Assembly (NCBI GenBank): GCA_038904395.1
Contig: JBCKKC010000001.1
Coordinates: forward strand, 25,759 to 89,758
Source: Acidimicrobiia bacterium
GTDB lineage: Bacteria; Actinomycetota; Acidimicrobiia; UBA2766
Direction: 5' to 3'
DNA: 64,000 bases
Part shown: positions 1,547 through 60,578 of the stretch, piece after piece
Layout: the number at the start of each line of letters is the position of its first letter
Numbering within the stretch: position 1 is the stretch's first letter
Position numbers and translations under genes: made by a program
Notes under the pieces: model-generated
Databases searched by the model: none
Told to the model about the DNA's origin: nothing
Seen by the model: the letters and a program-made list of their open reading frames with translations, nothing else

Positions 1547-1745
1547 GTAACCATTCACCCCCTCTCGTCATCCTGAGGGAGGCGCTAGCCGACCGTGAGG
1601 ATCCACCTGCGGCGAAGCCGCAGATCCACCTACATGTTCGAACCATTTTGAATTGCTCACTGCGTTCGCAACATAGCAAAGTCTGGATTGCCACGCCCTG
1701 AAGAGCCAGGGCTCGCAATGACGAGAGGGCGTGCTTAATGGCTTT
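1547..1745. mobile_element. MITE-like palindromic repeat element, copy E1 (full length)
   Basis: Left terminus GTAACCATTCAC, arm CGTCATCCTGAGGG, central hairpin GGATCCACCTGCGGCGAAGCCGCAGATCCACC, palindrome TTGAATTGCTC..GCAA, and right arm GGATTGCCACGCCCTG..CCAGGGCTCGCAATGACG. Shared with about 19 other loci in the window. Confidence 0.8.
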
Positions 1746-8862: not shown

Positions 8863-9882
8863 TCATTCCCCGTCGTGCTTGGCAAGGAAGTCGCCGACGG
8901 TGGCGAGGAAGAGGGCTGGTTCTTCGAGGTTGGGGAAGTGTGCGCTATCGTCGAACAGAACATACTCTGACCTGGGGATGCCTGAATGGATGCTCTCTGA
9001 ACACTCTGGCGGTGCCTCGCCGTACTTGCCCACGATGACTAGAGTCGGCACCGAAATTTGGGGAAGATCATCGATGCGGTCCCAGTCTTTGAGAGTGCCG
9101 GTCACCGCGTAGTCGTCGCCCCAGAGTTGAACATAGGCAGGGCTCTTAAGCATTTCACGAGCAGAGTACATGAGAGAGTCTGGCCACGGGTTGAGTCGGC
9201 ACATGTGTTCACGACTGAATCCCAGAGCTGCGAGCATATATCCCAACGTCTGGCCGGACCAGAGTTGTCTAATCAAGGTCTGCGCACCCAAGGCAACCGT
9301 GCGTGGGGAGGTTTTCATGACGGCATGGCGGAGCAGAGACAGCGTGTCAGATATTGCCTGCTTGTCGTCTCCCCCATCGCGCATGGCCCTTGAAATGTGA
9401 ACCATCAAGCTACGCCGCACATCAGGCGGGCAATCTCTGATCAAACGCAAGAATTCCTGCCGGATTTGAGGCACGCTGGCCGTTGTGCTGTCGAGAACTA
9501 GACTGCGCAAACCCTTCGACTGGCCGAATTTGAGGGCGTACTCAATGGCAAGGATTCCGCCCCACGACTGGCCGTACAGATGAAAATCCGTCACATCTAG
9601 TTCGTTGAGGATTTGGTCGATTTCGCTGACGAAATATTCGAGAGTATATAACGATGGATCCTTGGGCGTATCGGATCGTCCGCAGCCAAGCTGGTCATAG
9701 AAAATCACCGGTCGCCCCACATCAGCCAATGACGCCATGTTGGCTAGGTAGTCATGAGTGCCGCCTGGGCCCCCATGCAACGTCACCAGAGGCGGCTTAT
9801 CGCCATCACCCGCAACGCCATACCAGATATCACCCAATTGGCCTCGGCTAACACCGCTCTTCAGAGCCTGTGGTTGCAACAT
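8863..9882 (-). CDS. pip: proline iminopeptidase (alpha/beta hydrolase, S33 family)
   Basis: LHGGPGG motif and the YGQSWGG nucleophile elbow, with prolyl aminopeptidase-like length and architecture. Confidence 0.8.
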   Translation of the reverse strand: MLQPQALKSGVSRGQLGDIWYGVAGDGDKPPLVTLHGGPGGTHDYLANMASLADVGRPVIFYDQLGCGRSDTPKDPSLYTLEYFVSEIDQILNELDVTDFHLYGQSWGGILAIEYALKFGQSKGLRSLVLDSTTASVPQIRQEFLRLIRDCPPDVRRSLMVHISRAMRDGGDDKQAISDTLSLLRHAVMKTSPRTVALGAQTLIRQLWSGQTLGYMLAALGFSREHMCRLNPWPDSLMYSAREMLKSPAYVQLWGDDYAVTGTLKDWDRIDDLPQISVPTLVIVGKYGEAPPECSESIHSGIPRSEYVLFDDSAHFPNLEEPALFLATVGDFLAKHDGE

Positions 9883-9922: not shown

Positions 9923-10093
9923 TCATGGCGCAGCCATCCCTAAATACTCTGCGGCGTTTGCTAGCTCTAGCTTGGTTAGTTCGCTGGTAATGACTGAGGA
10001 CTGGCTATCAAAAATTTGCTTGCGCAGGCGAAGATGATCGGGCTCATCCGAAAGATAACAACGCACGACTGCGCTTGTGTCAACGTACAACAT
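9923..10093 (-). pseudogene. vapC: truncated vapC (PIN-domain toxin, N-terminal 56 codons only)
   Basis: I translated this myself: MLYVDTSAVVRCYLSDEPDHLRLRKQIFDSQSSVITSELTKLELANAAEYLGMAAP*. It has a PIN N-terminus with the conserved D5, but stops after about 40% of a normal VapC. It lies 35 bp downstream of an RHH antitoxin gene. Confidence 0.5.
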
Positions 10094-10130
10094 GCTCACG
10101 GGCGACCAATTATGCTAAATGATGGTACGA

Positions 10131-10424
10131 CTATGTGCGGTCGTGCCGCTGGACTTCCAATGCTTCGAGAATAGCTCTCGAAGCACCCTTGGGGAGCTTC
10201 GGCAATTCGCTTGATTCAGATTCACTGGTGCCAACCGAAATCTCAGAGAGCATGCCACGGCTCTTCGCGATCTGACGCAACCGCTCACGCGGGCTAAGGC
10301 TGTCTTCGACAACCCTGCTCAATACCTCAACCACGTATGTGTTCATTGATTCACCTGATTGCGCAGCAGCCTCTTTCAATTGGGAATGGAGATTGTCCGG
10401 CATCCGACAAAGTAGCTGCTTCAT
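10131..10424 (-). CDS. ribbon-helix-helix (CopG/VapB-type) antitoxin
   Basis: MPDNLHSQLKEAAAQSGESMNTYVVEVL matches the RHH signature, and it sits immediately upstream of the vapC remnant. Confidence 0.55.
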   Translation of the reverse strand: MKQLLCRMPDNLHSQLKEAAAQSGESMNTYVVEVLSRVVEDSLSPRERLRQIAKSRGMLSEISVGTSESESSELPKLPKGASRAILEALEVQRHDRT

Positions 10425-10640: not shown

Positions 10641-11723
10641 ATGATCTTCTCTACCCCCCGACTCAACAGGCAACTAGGACAGCAGCTAGCCAAACTCGAC
10701 ACTCTTCGGCAAGAGCTTGGCCAAAAAGAAGGCGGCAAGTTTCGATGGATGGGAACTCTGCGTCGACTTGTTAAGGCCTCTGCAGTGGAGGGTTCCACGT
10801 CAATTGAAGGCTTCACTGTGCCAGAGGCCGAAGCAGTCATGTTGGTCTCCAGCGGCGAGGCGGCGGATTCCTCGGACAAAAACCAACTAGCAGTTGCTTG
10901 CTATAGCCGAGCGATGGATCATGTATCGGTCCTCGCTGCCGACCCATCATTCCGTTGGCTCGATCGTGTAATCCTGGACTTGCATTTTGACGCTTGCCAT
11001 TTCCAAACTGACGCGAATCCGGGCCAGTGGCGCACTGGACCTGTTTCAGTGACCGGCAGTGGAGGGAGAATTGTCTATCAAGCTCCCGACAAGGCCGATG
11101 TCCCTGCACTGATGGCCGAAGTTGTGGACTGGCTCGAAAAGGGCGACCTGAACTCGCACATCGCGGTTCGTGCCGCCATGACACACCTGCATGCTGTTTC
11201 GGTGCATCCATTTAGTGATGGAAACGGACGCGGCGCCCGAATCCTTCAGTCTCTCGTCCTCGCACGTGGGGGGTTGGTTTCGGCCGAATTCGCATCAATC
11301 GAGCAGTATCTGGGCGCCAACACGCCAGCATATTATTCGGCGCTTCACGCAGCTCAAGGTGATAGATACGATCCAAGTCGGGATGTGACCAATTGGGTCA
11401 AGTTCTGCCTCGCCGCACATATCGATCAGGCTCAAACTCGCCTAGACCAGATTCGTCAAGCTGCCGCGAGATGGGATGCGCTAGAACAGTTGGCCGAAGA
11501 CCGGAGCTGGCCCGAGCGAGTTGTGATCGCACTCGAGCAGTGCCTAATCGGGGGGACCGACAGAGCCACCTATGCGTTCGAAGCCGACATCTCGCTCGCA
11601 ACAGCAAGTAGTGACCTGCGACGCCTGGTTGATGCCGGCCTCGTAGCCCAACACGGCCGAGGCCGAAGCACCCACTACCGAGCATCAACACAGCTAATAG
11701 ACATCTCGGTCGTTCGGGATTGA
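10641..11723 (+). CDS. Fic-family protein (class II, with intramolecular inhibitory motif)
   Basis: HPFSDGNGRGAR is the HPFx(D/E)GNGR Fic active-site motif. An N-terminal STSIEG matches the (S/T)xxxE(G/N) auto-inhibitory helix motif. The C-terminus is winged-helix-like. Confidence 0.85.
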   Translation: MIFSTPRLNRQLGQQLAKLDTLRQELGQKEGGKFRWMGTLRRLVKASAVEGSTSIEGFTVPEAEAVMLVSSGEAADSSDKNQLAVACYSRAMDHVSVLAADPSFRWLDRVILDLHFDACHFQTDANPGQWRTGPVSVTGSGGRIVYQAPDKADVPALMAEVVDWLEKGDLNSHIAVRAAMTHLHAVSVHPFSDGNGRGARILQSLVLARGGLVSAEFASIEQYLGANTPAYYSALHAAQGDRYDPSRDVTNWVKFCLAAHIDQAQTRLDQIRQAAARWDALEQLAEDRSWPERVVIALEQCLIGGTDRATYAFEADISLATASSDLRRLVDAGLVAQHGRGRSTHYRASTQLIDISVVRD

Positions 11724-11727
11724 CGGG

Positions 11728-12036
11728 GTGTCCCCACCAAAATGTGCTATAAGTAATACTATGCAGACTATTGGAGTGCGCGAATTGCGCCAGCAAGCAA
11801 GTAGATATCTGAAGCGCGTTGAGCGTGGTGAAACTATACAAGTCACTGACCACGGGCACCCGGTGGCGCTCCTGACTCCGATTCCAACCGGTAATATCAT
11901 CGAAGAGCTTATTGCGTCAGGCCAGATGACACCAGGACAGGGCGATATTCGAGACCTACCACCGCCTCTTCCACCAAAGCCCGGTCTCCCTCTACCTAGC
12001 GAGATTCTGCAAACCATGAGGTCAGATGAACGCTAG
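11728..12036 (+). CDS. Phd/YefM-family (VapB-type) antitoxin
   Basis: TIGVRELRQQASRYLKRVERGETIQVTDHGHPVALLTPI, with a ..DIRDLPPPLPPKPG..LQTMRSDER tail. The likely start is the ATG at 11761. It begins 5 bp after the fic stop. Confidence 0.65.
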   Translation: MSPPKCAISNTMQTIGVRELRQQASRYLKRVERGETIQVTDHGHPVALLTPIPTGNIIEELIASGQMTPGQGDIRDLPPPLPPKPGLPLPSEILQTMRSDER

Positions 12037-12037
12037 C

Positions 12038-12261
12038 GTAACCATTCACGTCCTCTTCCGTCATCCTGAGGGAGGCGCTAGCCGACCGTGAGGATCCACC
12101 TGTGGCGAAGCCGCAGATCCACCTGCATGTTCGATCCATTTGAATTGCTCGCTCCGCTCGCAACACGGCAAAGTCTGGATTGCCACGCCCTGCCAAAGCC
12201 CAGGGCTCGCAATGACGAAGCGCTGGTAGCGACACTCTGGCCAGGACACGTGAATGGTTAC
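12038..12261. mobile_element. MITE-like repeat element, copy E3 (full length, inserted into vapC)
   Basis: Both terminal repeats are present (GTAACCATTCACGTCC at 12038 and GACACGTGAATGGTTAC ending at 12261). It starts 2 bp after the antitoxin stop, where a vapC start (ATGA overlap) would be expected. Confidence 0.8.
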
Positions 12262-12436
12262 ATCCAGGGCTTCTCGACACTGCGGGCCTAATAGGACCGC
12301 CTGGACTTCGGACGCTGGATGCAATCCACCTGACAGCTGCGCAAAAGTTGGGACCTCGGTAACACGAGTTGTAACATACGACGCTCGGCTGGCCCAGGCA
12401 GCCCGCACAACAGGATTCTCCGTCGACTCTCCATGA
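12262..12436 (+). pseudogene. vapC: vapC C-terminal remnant (frameshifted)
   Basis: Two frames read ..LRTLDAIHLTAAQKLGPR* and ..VTRVVTYDARLAQAARTTGFSVDSP*, both typical PIN C-terminal segments. The N-terminal roughly 70 codons are missing and replaced by the MITE. Confidence 0.5.
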
Positions 12437-12579
12437 CCGATCAATGATCCGCATGAGCGATGCCCGCCCCTCCCCTCTATGCCATTTGGCCTATTTTGCC
12501 ACTTAGCGTGGGCCATTTGGACCCTTCGTGCTGTGAGCGCGCTTATGATTGAAAGGTCATGAGCCAAAGGGGGCAATTG

Positions 12580-12864
12580 ATGGCAGAAGAAATGACCACC
12601 ATCGATGGGTGTAAGATCCGCCACGGTGACCGGGTTCCGTCTGAGATCGTAGAAGATTGGTCTCGACAGGGGCTCATCAAGCGGGTCAAGAACGGACGGG
12701 GGTACTATACGAAAGGTCTGATGCTGGTTCGGGATAGACACGCACCAGGATATGTTGCGATCAATCCTTCCCAAGCCAGGCTCGTACCAATGCCGGTGGA
12801 AACACTAGAAAACACGCCGGCTGAGCTGATTTTTAGCGACAATGCTAAGCCCTCCAGACTTTAG
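12580..12864 (+). CDS. hypothetical protein (94 aa)
   Basis: Good SD AAAGGGGG lies 7 nt upstream of ATG. No recognisable domain. Convergent with the response-regulator gene. Confidence 0.4.
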   Translation: MAEEMTTIDGCKIRHGDRVPSEIVEDWSRQGLIKRVKNGRGYYTKGLMLVRDRHAPGYVAINPSQARLVPMPVETLENTPAELIFSDNAKPSRL

Positions 12865-28524: not shown

Positions 28525-28775
28525 TACACACTTCCCCCTCCGTCATTTCGAGCAAAGCGAAGCAACGAAGCAACCCGGGCTTCGATGCTTGGCGAGCGTA
28601 GCTTGCAATTCAAATAGATCGAACATGTAGGTGGATCTGCGGCTTCGCCGCAGGTGGATCCTCACAGTCGGCTGACGCCTCCCTCAGGATGACGAACGGT
28701 GATGGGGACGTGGATTGCCACGCCCTGTCAAAGCCCAGGGCTCGCAATGACGGGATGGGGGACGTGAATGGCGAC
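28525..28775. mobile_element. MITE-like repeat element, compound copy E8
   Basis: Element body (..TTGCAATTCAAATAGATCGAAC..GGATCTGCGGCTTCGCCGCAGGTGGATCC..CCTCAGGATGACG) plus an extra right arm GGATTGCCACGCCCTGTCAAAGCCCAGGGCTCGCAATGACGG and terminal repeat GGGGGACGTGAATGGCGAC. Confidence 0.75.
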
Positions 28776-30271
28776 TAGCTACCTGCGTAGAGACGTTCCA
28801 GATCGACTAGCTCGTAGTCGCCCTGAGCAGTGTAACCGCCAGATAAATCGGCGGTGAATCCGGACCGGCTAAAGAGCAGAAGCCGACAGTTACCTGCCCC
28901 GAGAAGGTCCCTAATGTGTCGGAGGCGGACTAGTTCAGCCACCCCGACCGGCCGCTGGGTCCATTTGGCTTCACCTATAGCAACGATCTGATTGTTCGCA
29001 ACTGCAACAACATCAATCTCGTGCACGACCCGGTGCTCCTTGCAACTCACCACAGAGCTACCGACCACACGCGGCCTTTCTCGGAGAGTAGGCTCAGCCG
29101 CGTAAAAGGCCGTCCATTGCCGGGCTAGATCCTCAAAGTGAGGCCCATAAATCTTGGCAGCGACAAGACCGCTCTCGGTAGCATCGCTCCACACTTGCGC
29201 CTGTTGGCCGATAACTAGCTGGTTTTCTCTCGGAGCTAACACAAGTTGTGACAGCCTCAGCAGCGGCTCGGCGATCTGGTAGCTGTTACGACGCTTTCTC
29301 AATGGGTCAACTCGTTCGGTTACCAGCTGAGACTCCGCCAATATCCGCAATGGATGACTCAAGGCCCCTTCTTTACGACCTAAGGCAGATGCGATTTCTC
29401 CTCGACGAGTCCTTCCTTCGGACAGGGCGGCCAGAATCGAAAAATACAAGCCAAGATCTTGAATGCGTGGGTCCTCGCTAACCAAAAGTTGAGCCTCACG
29501 AAAAAACGGACTTCCCGGGTTGAGAAGCACTTCGGCCACCCAAGCGTCGAAATCAGCCTCATCACGTGGAAACCGACCAAAACAAAAATCTCGATATGCG
29601 GGAGTCCCGCCACACAAGGCATGCAATTTGAATGCCAGCTCCCAGTGAGGTGAGAGTTGCCAAAAATCTGCCGTAACACGGTAGTCAAACGGCTTGAGCA
29701 CAATCTCACGCACCAGCCTTCCCCTCAGGGGCGCTGTGCCGCTGACCAGTTGACTCATAACGCTAAAGACCGAGCCACACAAAATCACACGGGCCCTTGA
29801 ATGTTGCTTCGCTCGACTCGTGGGCGACAAGGCTCGCTGCAACAAAGACGGTAATTCACCAGCGCCCCTGATGAGGAATGGAAATTCGTCCAATACAATC
29901 AGCACGGGATGGCCCTGTTCACCTAACGCCAGCAAATCCGCAATAGCAGCTTCCCAATCCGGAAACACTACAGGGCGGCCCACATTTCGATACTCAGCAT
30001 AGGCCCTGCCAATATCGGCCAAGTTCTGGCGTGACGACTGTTGCAGCCCACTGTAAAAGAACCCACCCGTTCTCTGCGCGAGCAGCTCCAGCAAGAGAGT
30101 CTTGCCCATGCGGCGTCGCCCATACACCAGACCAAGCTGGGCCCCGACAGAGTCGTTATCAACAAAAGATGCGACACTCGACCATTCGCTGTCGCGATCA
30201 AACAACCGCTCCGGCTTTTCCAATCCGGAATCAGGCGCAGATCCGTCTTTCATGCCACTACCACGACTCAT
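28775..30271 (-). CDS. AAA+ ATPase with C-terminal DUF234-type domain
   Basis: Walker A GRRRMGKTLL and Walker B LIVLDEF, and a C-terminal region typical of Arch_ATPase/DUF234 proteins. Start set at MSRGSGMKDG. The listed GTG start at 30301 lies inside the MITE terminal repeat. Confidence 0.7.
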   Translation of the reverse strand: MSRGSGMKDGSAPDSGLEKPERLFDRDSEWSSVASFVDNDSVGAQLGLVYGRRRMGKTLLLELLAQRTGGFFYSGLQQSSRQNLADIGRAYAEYRNVGRPVVFPDWEAAIADLLALGEQGHPVLIVLDEFPFLIRGAGELPSLLQRALSPTSRAKQHSRARVILCGSVFSVMSQLVSGTAPLRGRLVREIVLKPFDYRVTADFWQLSPHWELAFKLHALCGGTPAYRDFCFGRFPRDEADFDAWVAEVLLNPGSPFFREAQLLVSEDPRIQDLGLYFSILAALSEGRTRRGEIASALGRKEGALSHPLRILAESQLVTERVDPLRKRRNSYQIAEPLLRLSQLVLAPRENQLVIGQQAQVWSDATESGLVAAKIYGPHFEDLARQWTAFYAAEPTLRERPRVVGSSVVSCKEHRVVHEIDVVAVANNQIVAIGEAKWTQRPVGVAELVRLRHIRDLLGAGNCRLLLFSRSGFTADLSGGYTAQGDYELVDLERLYAGS

Positions 30272-30286
30272 GACATCCAACCGTTC

Positions 30287-30513
30287 GTAACCATTCAGCA
30301 CCTCTCGACCGGAGCGTCGTTACCAGCACGTTCGTCATCCTGAGGGAGCCGCTAGGCGACCGTGAGGATCCAGGAATCCGAATTCTTGCGAGCGTAGCGA
30401 GCAATTCAGAATAGCTCGACCATACGGGTGGACCTGCGGCTTCGCCCCAGATGGATCCTCACGCCCAGGCTGACGCCTGGGCTCAGGATGACGGAAGGGG
30501 TGGTGGATGGTTA
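30287..30513. mobile_element. MITE-like repeat element, copy E9 (full length)
   Basis: GTAACCATTCAGC terminus .. CGTCATCCTGAGGGAGCCGCTAGGCGACCGTGAGGATCC .. TTGCGAGCGTAGCGAGCAATTCAGAA .. GGACCTGCGGCTTCGCCCCAGATGGATCC .. GGGCTCAGGATGACGG .. GGTGGATGGTTAC. Confidence 0.8.
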
Positions 30514-30627
30514 CACCCGTTCGGCTCAAACGCTCCAACCCACACATTATAGGCTATTTGAAACTCGACTTTCAATATATGGAGTGTCATATTGCGTGGA
30601 AAGCACGGGCACGCCCGGTACTGCTAT

Positions 30628-43521: not shown

Positions 43522-43753
43522 GTAACCATTCACGTCCCCTCAGTCCGAGGGGTGCTACCAGGCCTTCGTCATTGCGAGCCCTGGGCTCTGGCAGGGCGTG
43601 GCAATCCAGACTTTGCTATGTTGCGAGCGCAGCGAGCAATTCAAAATGGTTCGATCATGCGGGTGGTCTGCGGCTTCGCCACAGGATGGATCCTCACGCC
43701 CTGGCTGACGCCAGGGCTCAGGATGACGGGAAGAGGGAGCTGAATGGTTAAAC
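43522..43753. mobile_element. MITE-like repeat element, copy E14 (full length, accA-atuA spacer)
   Basis: GTAACCATTCACGTCC .. CGTCATTGCGAGCCCTGGGCTCTGGCAGGGCGTGGCAATCC .. TTGCGAGCGCAGCGAGCAATTCAAAA .. GGTCTGCGGCTTCGCCACAGGATGGATCC .. CAGGGCTCAGGATGACGGGAAGAGGGAGCTGAATGGTTAAAC. The atuA ATG lies inside the right terminal repeat. Confidence 0.8.
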
Positions 43754-45603
43754 CGTTGCGTATCGCAAACTGCAGCGGCTTTTACGGTGACCGATTGTCG
43801 GCAGCTCAAGAGATGGTCACCGGCGGGCCGATTGACGTTCTGACGGGCGATTGGCTGGCTGAGCTGACCATGCTGATCTTGGCCAAGGACCGGATGAAGG
43901 ATCCAGCACGTGGCTATGCAAAGACGTTTCTTAAACAGCTTGAAGTTGTCTTGGGGACCTGTCTCGATAGCGGGATTCGAATTGTGAGCAATGCCGGAGG
44001 GCTTAACCCGGCCGGCTGCGCGGAAGCTATTAGCGAGCTGGCTCAGCGCCTGGGACTTACCCCTACGGTGGCTTTCGTGGGCGGCGACGATCTGATCGGC
44101 CAACTCGACCAGCTTCAGGCCAGCGGCGAGGAGTTGATCAACCTGGATACAGGCGAACACTGGGCCCAGATGGGCAAAGCGCCCATAACAGCCAATGCTT
44201 ACCTGGGCAGCTGGGGAATCAGCACCGCTCTGGGCCAAGGGGCGGATGTAGTCGTGACAGGCCGAGTGACAGACGCATCGCTTGTTGTTGGGCCAGCAGC
44301 GTGGCACTTTGACTGGGCTCATGACGACTGGGATCAACTCGCGGGCGCTATCGTTGCCGGCCACGCAATCGAGTGTGGCACTCAAGTGACGGGCGGAAAC
44401 TATTCGTTCTTCGACGAAATCCCTAACGCTCACAGATGCGGTTTCCCGATAGCCGAAGTGTTCAGCAACGGGTCATCGATCATTACAAAACATCCCGGCA
44501 CCGGTGGGGCTGTCTCGATAGGCACAGTAACAGCCCAGTTGGTTTACGAGATTGCTAGTCCGAGTTACGCCAATCCCGATGCCACTGCCCTTTTCGATAC
44601 AATCACCCTCGAAACAGTTGGCCCCGATCGGGTGCAAATTTCGGGGGTGCGGGGCACGCCACCGTCGCCAGACCTCAAGGTGGGCATCAACTATTTGGCC
44701 GGGTTTCGCAACTCGATGACGTTCTTGCTCACGGGGCTGGACATCAGCGAAAAGGCCCAACTCGCCCAAGATAGCCTGTGGGCTCAGTTCCCCGAAGGCC
44801 CGAACCATTTCGAATCAGTTTCTGTAGACCTCATCGACTCCGCCCGGCCAAACCCGCCAAGCAATCAAGACGCAATTTCGTCCCTGCGGGTGACGGTCTC
44901 AGATCCTGATGCAAGCAAGGTGGGGCGGGCTTTTTCATCAAAAGTCGTCGAGCTCGCCCTCGCTAGCTATCCGGGCTTTACCCTCACCACTCCCCCGCAA
45001 GACTCGACCCCATACGGAATTTTTTGGCCCACAACCATTGACCGCAGTCACGTAGATGAATTCGTCGAAATCGGTGGAACTCGCTACCCAATTAGCCATC
45101 CGCCTGCCCCCATGCAGTCATTGCGAGCGAAGCGAGCAATTCTCCCCCGTCATCCTGAGCCCTGGCGCCAGCCAGGGCGTGAGGATCCAGGAATCCGAAT
45201 TTTGCGAGCGAAGCGAGCAAGTCGAAACGGATCCCGAGACCTGCCACTCGGAGTGGTCATGGGCGCGCGTTCCGGCGACAAGGGTGGAAACGCTAACATT
45301 GGCGTGTGGACTTCCGATGTCCGCTGTTATGAATGGCTCGACGATTTTCTGTCGATCGACAAGTTGAGGGAGCTAATGCCCGAGACAAAGTCCCTCGAAA
45401 TTCATCGCTACAGGTTGGCCAACCTTAACGCCCTCAACTTTGTCGTTGTTGGTCTCCTCGGCCGTGGCGTCGCAGCCTCAACCCGTATCGATCCTCAAGC
45501 AAAGGGCCTGGGCGAATACTTGCGAGCAAAAGTGGTGCCGCTACCGGTCGAGCTGCTGTCAGATGCAGGCAAGAAGGGTCTACCGACGCAGGCCGCTGAC
45601 TAG
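43744..45603 (+). CDS. AtuA-family (acyclic terpene utilisation, DUF1446 + C-terminal domain) protein, carrying an in-frame MITE-derived insert
   Basis: N-terminus ..LRIANCSGFYGDR.. and C-terminal ..ARSGDKGGNANIGVW.. are typical of AtuA. A 40-codon insert lies between the two conserved regions. Confidence 0.7.
   Translation: MVKPLRIANCSGFYGDRLSAAQEMVTGGPIDVLTGDWLAELTMLILAKDRMKDPARGYAKTFLKQLEVVLGTCLDSGIRIVSNAGGLNPAGCAEAISELAQRLGLTPTVAFVGGDDLIGQLDQLQASGEELINLDTGEHWAQMGKAPITANAYLGSWGISTALGQGADVVVTGRVTDASLVVGPAAWHFDWAHDDWDQLAGAIVAGHAIECGTQVTGGNYSFFDEIPNAHRCGFPIAEVFSNGSSIITKHPGTGGAVSIGTVTAQLVYEIASPSYANPDATALFDTITLETVGPDRVQISGVRGTPPSPDLKVGINYLAGFRNSMTFLLTGLDISEKAQLAQDSLWAQFPEGPNHFESVSVDLIDSARPNPPSNQDAISSLRVTVSDPDASKVGRAFSSKVVELALASYPGFTLTTPPQDSTPYGIFWPTTIDRSHVDEFVEIGGTRYPISHPPAPMQSLRAKRAILPRHPEPWRQPGREDPGIRILRAKRASRNGSRDLPLGVVMGARSGDKGGNANIGVWTSDVRCYEWLDDFLSIDKLRELMPETKSLEIHRYRLANLNALNFVVVGLLGRGVAASTRIDPQAKGLGEYLRAKVVPLPVELLSDAGKKGLPTQAAD
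45113..45233. mobile_element. MITE-like element fragment inserted in-frame in atuA, copy E15
   Basis: GTCATTGCGAGCGAAGCGAGCAATTC then CCCCGTCATCCTGAGCCCTGGCGCCAGCCAGGGCGTGAGGATCCAGGAATCCGAATTTTGCGAGCGAAGCGAGCAAGTC, which is identical to the left half of copy E6. Translated as ..MQSLRAKRAILPRHPEPWRQPGREDPGIRILRAKRASRNGSRD.. Confidence 0.8.
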
Positions 45604-59053: not shown

Positions 59054-59127
59054 GCTCGAGTAGCTCAGTTGGCTAGAGCGCTGCCCTTACAAGGCAGATG
59101 TCGGGGGTTCGAGTCCCTCCTCGAGCA
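59054..59127 (+). tRNA. tRNA-Val (anticodon TAC)
   Basis: Cloverleaf with acceptor GCTCGAG/CTCGAGC, D-arm TAGCTCAGTTGGCTAGAGC, anticodon stem CTGCC/GGCAG with loop CTTACAA, T-arm GGGGGTTCGAGTCCCTC, discriminator A, and an encoded CCA. Confidence 0.85.
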
Positions 59128-59134
59128 CCATTTC

Positions 59135-59360
59135 CCCTCCGTTATTGCGAGCGTAGCGAGCAATTCGAAACTGACCCACCGTATCAGTTGGTCTGCGGCT
59201 TCGCCGCAGGTGGATCCTCACGGTCGCCTAGCGGCTCCCTCAGGATGACGAACGGGGGGGGCTTCGCCCCTCCCGCTGCACTCACGACTTGCTCGGGGGC
59301 AGGCTCTGCTTCGCTACGCTCGCAATGAGTGAGGGGCGGCTGGGCCGCCCCTCACTGTAC
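59135..59360. mobile_element. MITE-like repeat element, copy E18 (immediately 3' of tRNA-Val), ending in a 12-bp GC hairpin
   Basis: CCGTTATTGCGAGCGTAGCGAGCAATTCGAAA .. GGTCTGCGGCTTCGCCGCAGGTGGATCC .. CCCTCAGGATGACG .. TTCGCTACGCTCGCAATGAGTGAGGGGCGGCTGGGCCGCCCCTCAC. Confidence 0.75.
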
Positions 59361-60243: not shown

Positions 60244-60347
60244 TGTTGTTCCTCCATTGAAGATGAGCAGTGCACAAGATGCATTTGCTCAGGAGAGGGG
60301 AGCATACCTGCCGCCTTGGCTCAAAGAGAAATCCGCCGGCGACCCGC

Positions 60348-60566
60348 AACCATTCACCCCTTCCGTCATCCTGAGGGAGCGCAGCGACCGTGAGGATCCA
60401 CCTGCGGCGAAGCCGCAGAACAACCCGCATTTTCGATCCATTTTTGAATTGCTCGCTGCGCTCGCAAAAGATGTGAAGCCTGGATTGCGAGCCCTGCCAA
60501 AGCCCAGGGCTCGCAATGACAGTAGGTCTGGTAGCGCGAAACTGGCTAGGGGGATGCGAATGGCTA
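60348..60566. mobile_element. MITE-like repeat element, copy E19 (full length)
   Basis: CAACCATTCACC .. CGTCATCCTGAGGGAGCGCAGCGACCGTGAGGATCCACCTGCGGCGAAGCCGCAGAAC .. TTTTTGAATTGCTCGCTGCGCTCGCAAAAG .. CCAGGGCTCGCAATGAC .. GGGGGATGCGAATGGCTAC. Confidence 0.8.
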
Positions 60567-60578
60567 CCCGAGATGGGC

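Follow-up and report, generated by a model that had tools for sequence, protein, structure and literature searches.

A window of 64,000 nucleotides, the term being used here for the whole stretch of DNA that was analysed, contains a toxin-antitoxin locus in which the antitoxin gene is intact and the toxin gene, vapC, is reduced to its first codons and its 3' end. A complete MITE-like element lies between these two parts of the toxin gene. The features of the locus are as follows.

11761..12036 (+), intact Phd/YefM-type (VapB-like) antitoxin gene, 91 aa, stop codon TAG at 12034..12036; from PF02604, TIGR01552 and full-length homologues
12026..12037 (+), surviving vapC start and codons 1-4, ATG AAC GCT AGC (MNAS), in an 11-nt overlap with the 3' end of the antitoxin gene; same position as in the closest homologous locus, L001
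12038..12261 (no strand), complete 224-bp MITE-like element where vapC codons 5-75 should be; terminal inverted repeats perfect over 14 bp, full-length alignment to other copies
12038..12051 (+), left terminal inverted repeat, GTAACCATTCACGT; perfect, 14/14 bp
12248..12261 (+), right terminal inverted repeat, ACGTGAATGGTTAC; perfect, 14/14 bp
12264..12359 (+), vapC remnant, first frame, PGLLDTAGLIGPPGLRTLDAIHLTAAQKLGPR, whose LDAIHL includes the third of the conserved PIN acidic residues; from tblastn, profile and alignment A1
12357..12359 (+), one-base deletion, CGN GTA to CG GTA in a G run, the first frame then stopping at TAA 12360..12362; from spacing and a gapless alignment upon repair
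12359..12436 (+), vapC remnant, second frame, VTRVVTYDARLAQAARTTGFSVDSP, stop codon TGA at 12434..12436, with the fourth conserved acidic residue in TYD; from tblastn and profile

On sequence comparison the identity and the integrity of the antitoxin are established. The 91-aa product of 11761..12036 (+) matches PF02604, PhdYeFM_antitox (E 1.8e-10, 40.9 bits against a cut-off of 29.8 bits), as well as TIGR01552, phd_fam (32.2 bits against 20.8), and 387 homologues of 90-95 aa align with it from end to end, the conserved C-terminus reading ...LPLPSE[IV]L..[ML]R.DER followed by the stop. The nearest homologue other than itself is only 66% identical and the locus is known from one genome. The intact Phd/VapB-type antitoxin of the original prediction is thus borne out by PF02604 and by the full-length alignment to homologues. 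The gene had been placed at 11728..12036; a reading frame of that extent is present in the window and its stop stands, but all homologues start at the equivalent of 11761, which indicates that the GTG at 11728 is an extension made by the ORF finder and that the gene truly starts at the ATG at 11761. The intact antitoxin reading frame is no evidence for its maintenance, because at the lesion density of the toxin remnant, approximately one per 170 bp, a gene of 276 bp would be found unbroken by chance in approximately 20% of cases.

The vapC remnant and the extent of the loss

The start of vapC survives to the left of the element. In L001, as in the window, the antitoxin stop and the vapC start overlap by 11 nt, and the start contexts are near-identical (GATGAGCGCTGA in L001 versus GATGAACGCTAG in the window). 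Homology to vapC ends at 12037 and resumes at 12264-12270, equivalent to L001 residues 76-78, leaving approximately 71 codons (213 bp), numbered 5-75 in the closest homologue, missing. A loss of roughly 70 N-terminal codons had been proposed and is confirmed, though codons 1-4 are kept. The accompanying proposal that the element sits exactly at the start of vapC does not hold, as the ATG and codons 1-4 (12026..12037) remain on its left; one base separates the antitoxin stop from the start of the element. The two deletion endpoints lie no more than a few bases from the ends of the element. All 224 bp of it align to other copies, indicating that no vapC sequence is hidden inside it, and neither tblastn nor profile searches detected the N-terminal half of the antitoxin-paired PIN subfamily anywhere in the window. 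Among what was lost are the YLDSSA and VEV segments of the N-terminus, where the first two of the four conserved PIN acidic residues are found. With the N-terminal half of the PIN fold absent and two of the four acidic residues gone, the toxin is predicted to be dead.

Homologous loci indicate what the toxin gene should resemble. Nine loci were retrieved from around four homologues of the antitoxin (66%, 66%, 60% and 58% identical), and each has a PIN-domain gene, 116-135 codons long, that directly follows or overlaps the antitoxin gene. When two of these PIN toxins were compared with the whole window by tblastn, the only matches were to 12270..12350 and 12368..12433, corresponding to toxin residues 74-128. 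A PIN profile made from four toxins encoded behind antitoxin homologues was also searched against all 2,209 six-frame segments of the window; the segment 12216..12359, at profile positions 74-102 with E 3.6e-6, ranked first and the segment 12254..12433, at profile positions 99-129 with E 4.3e-6, second. The remnant amounts to the final 57 codons of a PIN (VapC) toxin, divided between two frames that meet at CCT CG|G TAA CA, which reads CCT CGN GTA ACA once one base is restored. Restoration gives a spacing from AAQ to TYD of exactly 10 residues, as in intact homologues, and the restored remnant scores 58.2 bits (E 1.3e-16) with a gapless alignment over profile positions 75-129 of 130. The original assignment of the downstream frames to VapC C-terminal segments is upheld by the two top profile matches and the score upon repair, and the frameshift claimed with it corresponds to a single base lost at 12357..12359.

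The degree of conservation of the remnant is close to that of intact toxins. In leave-one-out comparisons the remnant obtains 53-59 bits, where true C-terminal halves of this toxin subfamily obtain 63-69 bits. Alignment A1 shows all 17 of the 17 invariant columns kept, including LR.LD.IH and TYD.R, and identity to homologues is 44-54%, compared with 48-61% between intact toxins whose antitoxins are similarly distant. With the general Pfam PIN model the remnant gives a weak match, at 13.6 bits against a cut-off of 23.6 bits and over positions 88-119 of 120. The strong score with the subfamily profile combined with the weak Pfam score suggests that the match is specific to the PIN subfamily paired with this antitoxin, as would be expected if the remnant was the antitoxin's own partner. 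The arrangement resembles that of VapBC modules with a Phd/YefM antitoxin, the antitoxin coming first and the toxin start overlapping its stop by 11 nt. It differs from them in that the toxin in the window is without codons 5-75 and frameshifted, a remnant rather than part of a working module. These observations support a degraded Phd/YefM-PIN (VapBC-like) module in which a complete MITE-like element replaces the lost N-terminal part.

The element and its repeat family

The full element with both terminal repeats that had been described at 12038..12261 is present, its ends forming a perfect 14-bp inverted repeat. This copy folds at -88.9 kcal/mol (z -3.5). According to the predicted fold, the antitoxin mRNA would now continue into a highly structured element. 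Scanning the surroundings of the locus for promoters and terminators gave no more matches than shuffled sequence did.

The element belongs to a family that is abundant in the window. A blastn search of the window with the 224-bp element yields 29 HSPs including the self-match, and self-comparison of the window identifies 19 repeat blocks of 91-292 bp, a total of 4.07 kb or 6.4% of the window. The 14-bp terminal motif, with up to two mismatches allowed, occurs 11 times against 0.25 expected, at least 11 occurrences being obtained in none of 100 shuffles, and terminal repeats are recognisable at no fewer than 10 places in the window besides the vapC locus. Four copies, 12038..12261, 30287..30514, 43522..43751 and 60346..60567, are full-length with both ends and measure 222-230 bp. 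Copies contain a first hairpin module, CGTCATCCTGAG...GTGAGGATCCA, of which a variant with compensating changes, CGTCATTGCGAG...GGCAATCCAG, is also found; an inverted copy of this module lies near the opposite end of the element, and a further hairpin module, CTGYGGCGAAGCCGCAG, is present. Almost all copies are intergenic and the majority have a stop codon no more than 35 bp away, with no consistent bias in their orientation relative to the neighbouring stop codons. This closeness to stop codons may simply reflect where a gene-dense window tolerates insertions.

Target-site duplications were sought in the flanks of the copies. Copy 30287..30514 is flanked by AACCGTTC and ACCCGTTC, a 7/8 match. 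Among related copies in metagenomes, the flanking 8-mers match at 7/8 in one (L010), at 7/8 with the boundary moved by one base in a second (L011) and, by eye, at 8/8 with the boundary moved by four bases in a third (L008), the null probability of a match of at least 7/8 being 0.00035 per site at a fixed position. Matches of 7/8 to 8/8 at several copies indicate that the family makes 8-bp duplications. The copy at the vapC locus is flanked by ACGCTAGC and ATCCAGGG, which match at 3/8, the level expected by chance, and the duplication that was to be looked for as a check on the original prediction is absent there. Of the window's other three full-length copies, those at 43522..43751 and 60346..60567 are also without a duplication, which renders the absence at the vapC copy less diagnostic.

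The family has terminal inverted repeats, a size below approximately 300 bp, no transposase of its own and many copies, features by which MITEs are recognised, and it is apparently a so far undescribed MITE family with IS66-like ends. Terminal repeats of the IS66 family start with GTAAGCG and are accompanied by 8-bp direct repeats (PMC11946415), and ISDge4, a member of the ISBst12 group, has the ends GTAACTGCTCAGCA and an 8-bp repeat (PMC12898284). IS66-derived MITEs and the element in the window are alike in the GTAAC at the start of the ends, in the 8-bp duplications and in being small, non-coding and multicopy; they are unlike in that the ends in the window agree with IS66 in the first 4-5 bases only. 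On these sequence grounds, assignment to IS66 is a lead to a parent family, not an established membership. No transposase was detected among the 31 larger ORFs of the window that were scanned, and no autonomous partner with the ends of the element (GTAACCATTCACG) was found in the window. REP/BIME, ERIC and the Correia elements of Neisseria are intergenic structured repeats, with which the family shares a high copy number, stable hairpin modules and an almost exclusively intergenic position near gene 3' ends. The defined terminal inverted repeats and 8-bp duplications, however, make the family in the window transposon-like, not REP-like.

The known distribution of the family is narrow. No match to it, using two patterns, was obtained in 185,579 species-representative genomes, a set that does not include the source genome; it has no similarity to any Rfam family and no match in a plasmid collection, and full-text literature searches with the hairpin motifs returned unrelated primer matches only. 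A metagenome scan identified six contigs with shorter elements of approximately 125-140 bp, sharing GTAACCATTCACGG ends and the adjacent CGTCATCCTGAG hairpin. The G+C content of the window is 56.3%. Its GyrB shares 71% identity with that of Acidimicrobiia metagenome-assembled genomes, and a best match at this level points to an Actinomycetota lineage without close sequenced relatives. Approximately 54 kb of sequence around gyrB of the nearest relatives had a G+C content of 68-69% and contained no copy of the element. The assembly is that of an uncultured lineage, in which repeat collapse, or a homopolymer error at the frameshift, is possible.

History of the vapC locus

A simple insertion would split vapC while keeping all of it, and would leave an 8-bp duplication; the loss of 213 bp indicates that the locus did not arise by simple insertion. 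The original prediction saw here a direct snapshot of the repeat inactivating a toxin. Its anatomical part, an intact antitoxin beside a dead toxin with the element at the lost part, stands, whereas its causal part is no more than plausible, since insertion of a MITE alone cannot remove 213 bp.

The best reading, to which we assign a probability of roughly 0.6, is a toxin-antitoxin operon that decayed via an element-associated deletion. The ancestral vapC would have started at 12026, in an 11-nt overlap with the antitoxin stop, and extended for approximately 132 codons. A high-copy, non-autonomous element of approximately 225 bp with terminal inverted repeats and IS66-like GTAA... ends would then have landed in vapC, and the DNA between codons 4 and 76 would subsequently have been lost in an event using the element ends. 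Transposable elements can give rise to deletions by adjacent deletion through intramolecular transposition or by recombination between two direct copies. At vapC the first route would be an adjacent deletion driven by a transposase acting intramolecularly, and the second would be homologous recombination between two direct copies of the element inside the gene; either would leave a single complete copy between unrelated flanks and without a target-site duplication. The locus resembles such deletions in retaining one complete copy, in being bounded by the element ends and in the absence of a duplication, and deletion endpoints at the element ends together with the missing duplication favour deletion mediated by the element. 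The two routes are indistinguishable from one sequence, and either is a putative mechanism; mobility of the element and the adjacent-deletion route are proposed by analogy, no transposase with matching ends having been found in the window. The one-base deletion in the 3' part is a second, independent lesion. At least an insertion and a deletion, or two insertions and a recombination, are required, plus the separate frameshift. The event looks recent, given perfect terminal repeats, only one frame-breaking lesion and a remnant identity barely below that of intact pairs. The part of the element in causing the deletion, the order of events and the present role of the antitoxin are what we infer from the locus, the order because it is represented by one genome with no empty-site or intermediate allele.

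Alternatively, vapC may have lost codons 5-75 by an ordinary deletion, with the MITE entering dead DNA behind the antitoxin stop at a later time. The toxin would then not have been inactivated by the repeat. The distribution of the other copies, nearly all in non-coding DNA and most of them close (35 bp or less) to a stop codon, is what insertion into dispensable DNA predicts, and the remnant bears an independent frameshift. A second toxin-antitoxin module, spanning 10424..9923 (-), also bears on this alternative.

10424..10131 (-), RHH antitoxin gene; matches to HicB, FitA-like RHH and Arc models, none below its cut-off
10093..9923 (-), truncated PIN gene of 56 codons, start at 10093 and stop at 9923; PF01850 at 26.1 bits (cut-off 23.6 bits), positions 2-47 of 120

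By its sequence, the PIN gene of this module is a separate, independently truncated toxin that has lost its C-terminal half. The gap from its stop at 9923 to the start of the next gene at 9882 is 40 nt, and no copy of the element is found at the break. A toxin truncated without a MITE shows that toxin decay in this neighbourhood does not need the repeat, and counts in favour of a later insertion at vapC. Such an insertion would, however, have to strike the older deletion junction to within a few bases, and a young-looking copy with perfect 14-bp terminal inverted repeats should have kept an 8-bp duplication, whereas its flanks match at only 3/8. We consider this order of events unlikely.

It is very improbable that the locus is an assembly artefact, vapC being in truth intact or otherwise interrupted and the sequence reflecting a mis-join or collapse at a 225-bp repeat plus a homopolymer error. 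Repeats of approximately 225 bp are a classic cause of assembly mis-joins, and the element is present in approximately 19 copies in 64 kb. Each of the three window proteins looked up forms a single-member cluster and occurs on one NCBI contig only, the nearest GyrB relatives are metagenome-assembled genomes and the frameshift lies in a G run. The sequences on either side of the element nevertheless come from a single gene and are correctly ordered and oriented, which a random mis-join would not yield, and a collapse would need two copies within one 400-bp gene, which is improbable. The ORFs scanned in the window are ordinary chromosomal genes (among them gyrB, a gyrA/parC-like gene, gatB, rtcB and genes of acyl-CoA metabolism), and the coherent order of core genes in the rest of the window counts against an artefact.

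Almost no weight attaches to a split of vapC by inversion, with the PIN N-terminal fragment at 10093..9926 (-), 2 kb away, as the missing half and the MITE at one end of the inversion, a notion to which the complementary Pfam PIN positions (2-47 at 10093..9926 and 88-119 at 12264..12436), the inverted orientation of the fragments and the presence of the MITE at one putative breakpoint lend some appeal, but the cognate-PIN profile gives true N-terminal halves 53-69 bits and this fragment only 10-15 bits, placing it in a different PIN subfamily, and it was rejected as the missing half. An RHH antitoxin of its own is encoded directly upstream of the fragment, and no element copy lies at its break. 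The PIN profile search of the window also matched 9926..10114 (-), at E 0.016.

Relation to known cases and the surrounding genes

Orphan antitoxins from degraded toxin-antitoxin systems are well documented (PMC7354431, section 4.2), examples being a parE pseudogene in Caulobacter and a frameshifted yacB in Shigella. The decayed operon described here agrees with these cases in having an intact antitoxin beside a disabled toxin, loss of the toxin first being tolerated and loss of the antitoxin first not. It differs from them in its lesion, a replacement, of the size of a mobile element, of two-thirds of the toxin gene, not a point mutation. Interruption of genes by MITEs is likewise documented, as for hupL in Thiomargarita (PMC4853749). 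The locus is biologically ordinary, a tidy example accompanied by an apparently undescribed MITE family, and holds no new principle on toxin-antitoxin systems or MITEs. Its value is as a clean, base-resolved case of toxin-antitoxin decay, with the toxin lost first, the antitoxin kept and a mobile repeat at the scar, in which a MITE family alters coding DNA besides spacers. The repeat family looks more worth following than the single vapC locus.

A broader reading appears quite improbable. It would make the element a lineage-specific, IS66-like structured repeat that occupies nearly all gaps between genes in a genome related to Acidimicrobiia and unusually low in GC, with the deletions it produces as a main route of gene loss there and vapC as the first case caught. 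The antitoxin, with the element as its structured 3' tail, would be kept for an anti-addiction or regulatory function, as opposed to being simply not yet decayed.

The locus calls for caution in annotation, as the antitoxin would be labelled an orphan and the 60-aa ORF at 12254..12436 is a chimera of terminal repeat and toxin tail. The Fic/DOC-family protein encoded upstream at 10641..11723 was considered as a reversed partner of the Phd-Doc type and rejected, there being no Fic neighbour in the homologous antitoxin loci. As read from its sequence, this protein carries the Fic motif HPFSDGNGRGAR together with a putative internal inhibitory motif, STSIEG.

Repeat copies in the window and related elements

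Repeat family members, MITE-like elements with IS66-like ends, form 19 blocks in the window, account for 6.4% of its sequence and occupy nearly every intergenic gap, with flanking stop or start codons only a few bases away from many copies.

1547..1738, 27409..27599, 28532..28783, 43522..43754, 60345..60567: example repeat blocks
59054..59130: tRNA-Val gene
59142..59260: partial repeat copy

The copies are composed of hairpin modules assembled in mosaic fashion, one of which exists in two forms with compensating stem changes, ATCCT...AGGAT versus ATTGC...GCAAT. The partial copy starts 12 bp past the 3' end of tRNA-Val (anticodon TAC), the sole tRNA gene of the window.

Related elements are present on metagenome contigs from JGI (L006..L011; Ga0182027, Ga0182014, Ga0182021, Ga0134128), being shorter than the window copies at about 125-140 bp. 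GTAACCATTCACGG ends and the CGTCATCCTGAG hairpin are common to these elements and the window repeat family, and 8-bp target duplications are observed at several of the metagenome elements. Combined, the shared ends, hairpin and target duplications point to a wider MITE superfamily with IS66-like ends in environmental bacteria.

The nearest relatives by GyrB are Acidimicrobiia MAGs with 71% identity, and the repeat family is absent from the 54 kb of sequence representing them (L015..L017, loci around gyrB). G+C content is 56% in the window versus 68-69% in these loci, a large compositional shift in the repeat-carrying lineage.

Toxin-antitoxin and Fic genes near the vapC remnant

10641..11723, +: Fic-family protein carrying an HTH-like region at its C-terminus and the canonical HPFSDGNGRGAR motif
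10424..10131, minus: RHH antitoxin, intact, matching HicB, FitA-like and Arc models
10093..9923, minus: PIN toxin, truncated after 56 codons, covering Pfam PIN positions 2-47 of 120

The Fic-family gene directly adjoins the Phd antitoxin on its upstream side, and its product contains an STSIEG stretch consistent with the inhibitory motif that self-inhibited Fic proteins carry internally. A partnership with the antitoxin is unlikely, as Fic genes are missing from the neighbourhood of the antitoxin's homologues.

A second toxin-antitoxin module is located at 10424..9923 on the minus strand, the RHH antitoxin preceding the truncated PIN toxin. The break in this toxin is not associated with a repeat element, and 40 nt separate it from the start of the next gene. 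This toxin and the vapC remnant belong to different PIN subfamilies.

Open reading frames at and after the vapC remnant

12559..12864, +: 101-aa ORF downstream of the vapC remnant
12254..12436, +: 60-aa chimeric ORF, terminal repeat plus vapC tail

The 101-aa ORF yielded weak matches, excisionase-like (E 0.06) and MerR-like HTH (E 0.22), and nothing stronger. The 60-aa ORF initiates at an ATG within the right terminal repeat (GTGAATGG) and continues in frame into the vapC remnant, taking in its final 25 codons; this chimera could be annotated as a small protein by gene-calling software.
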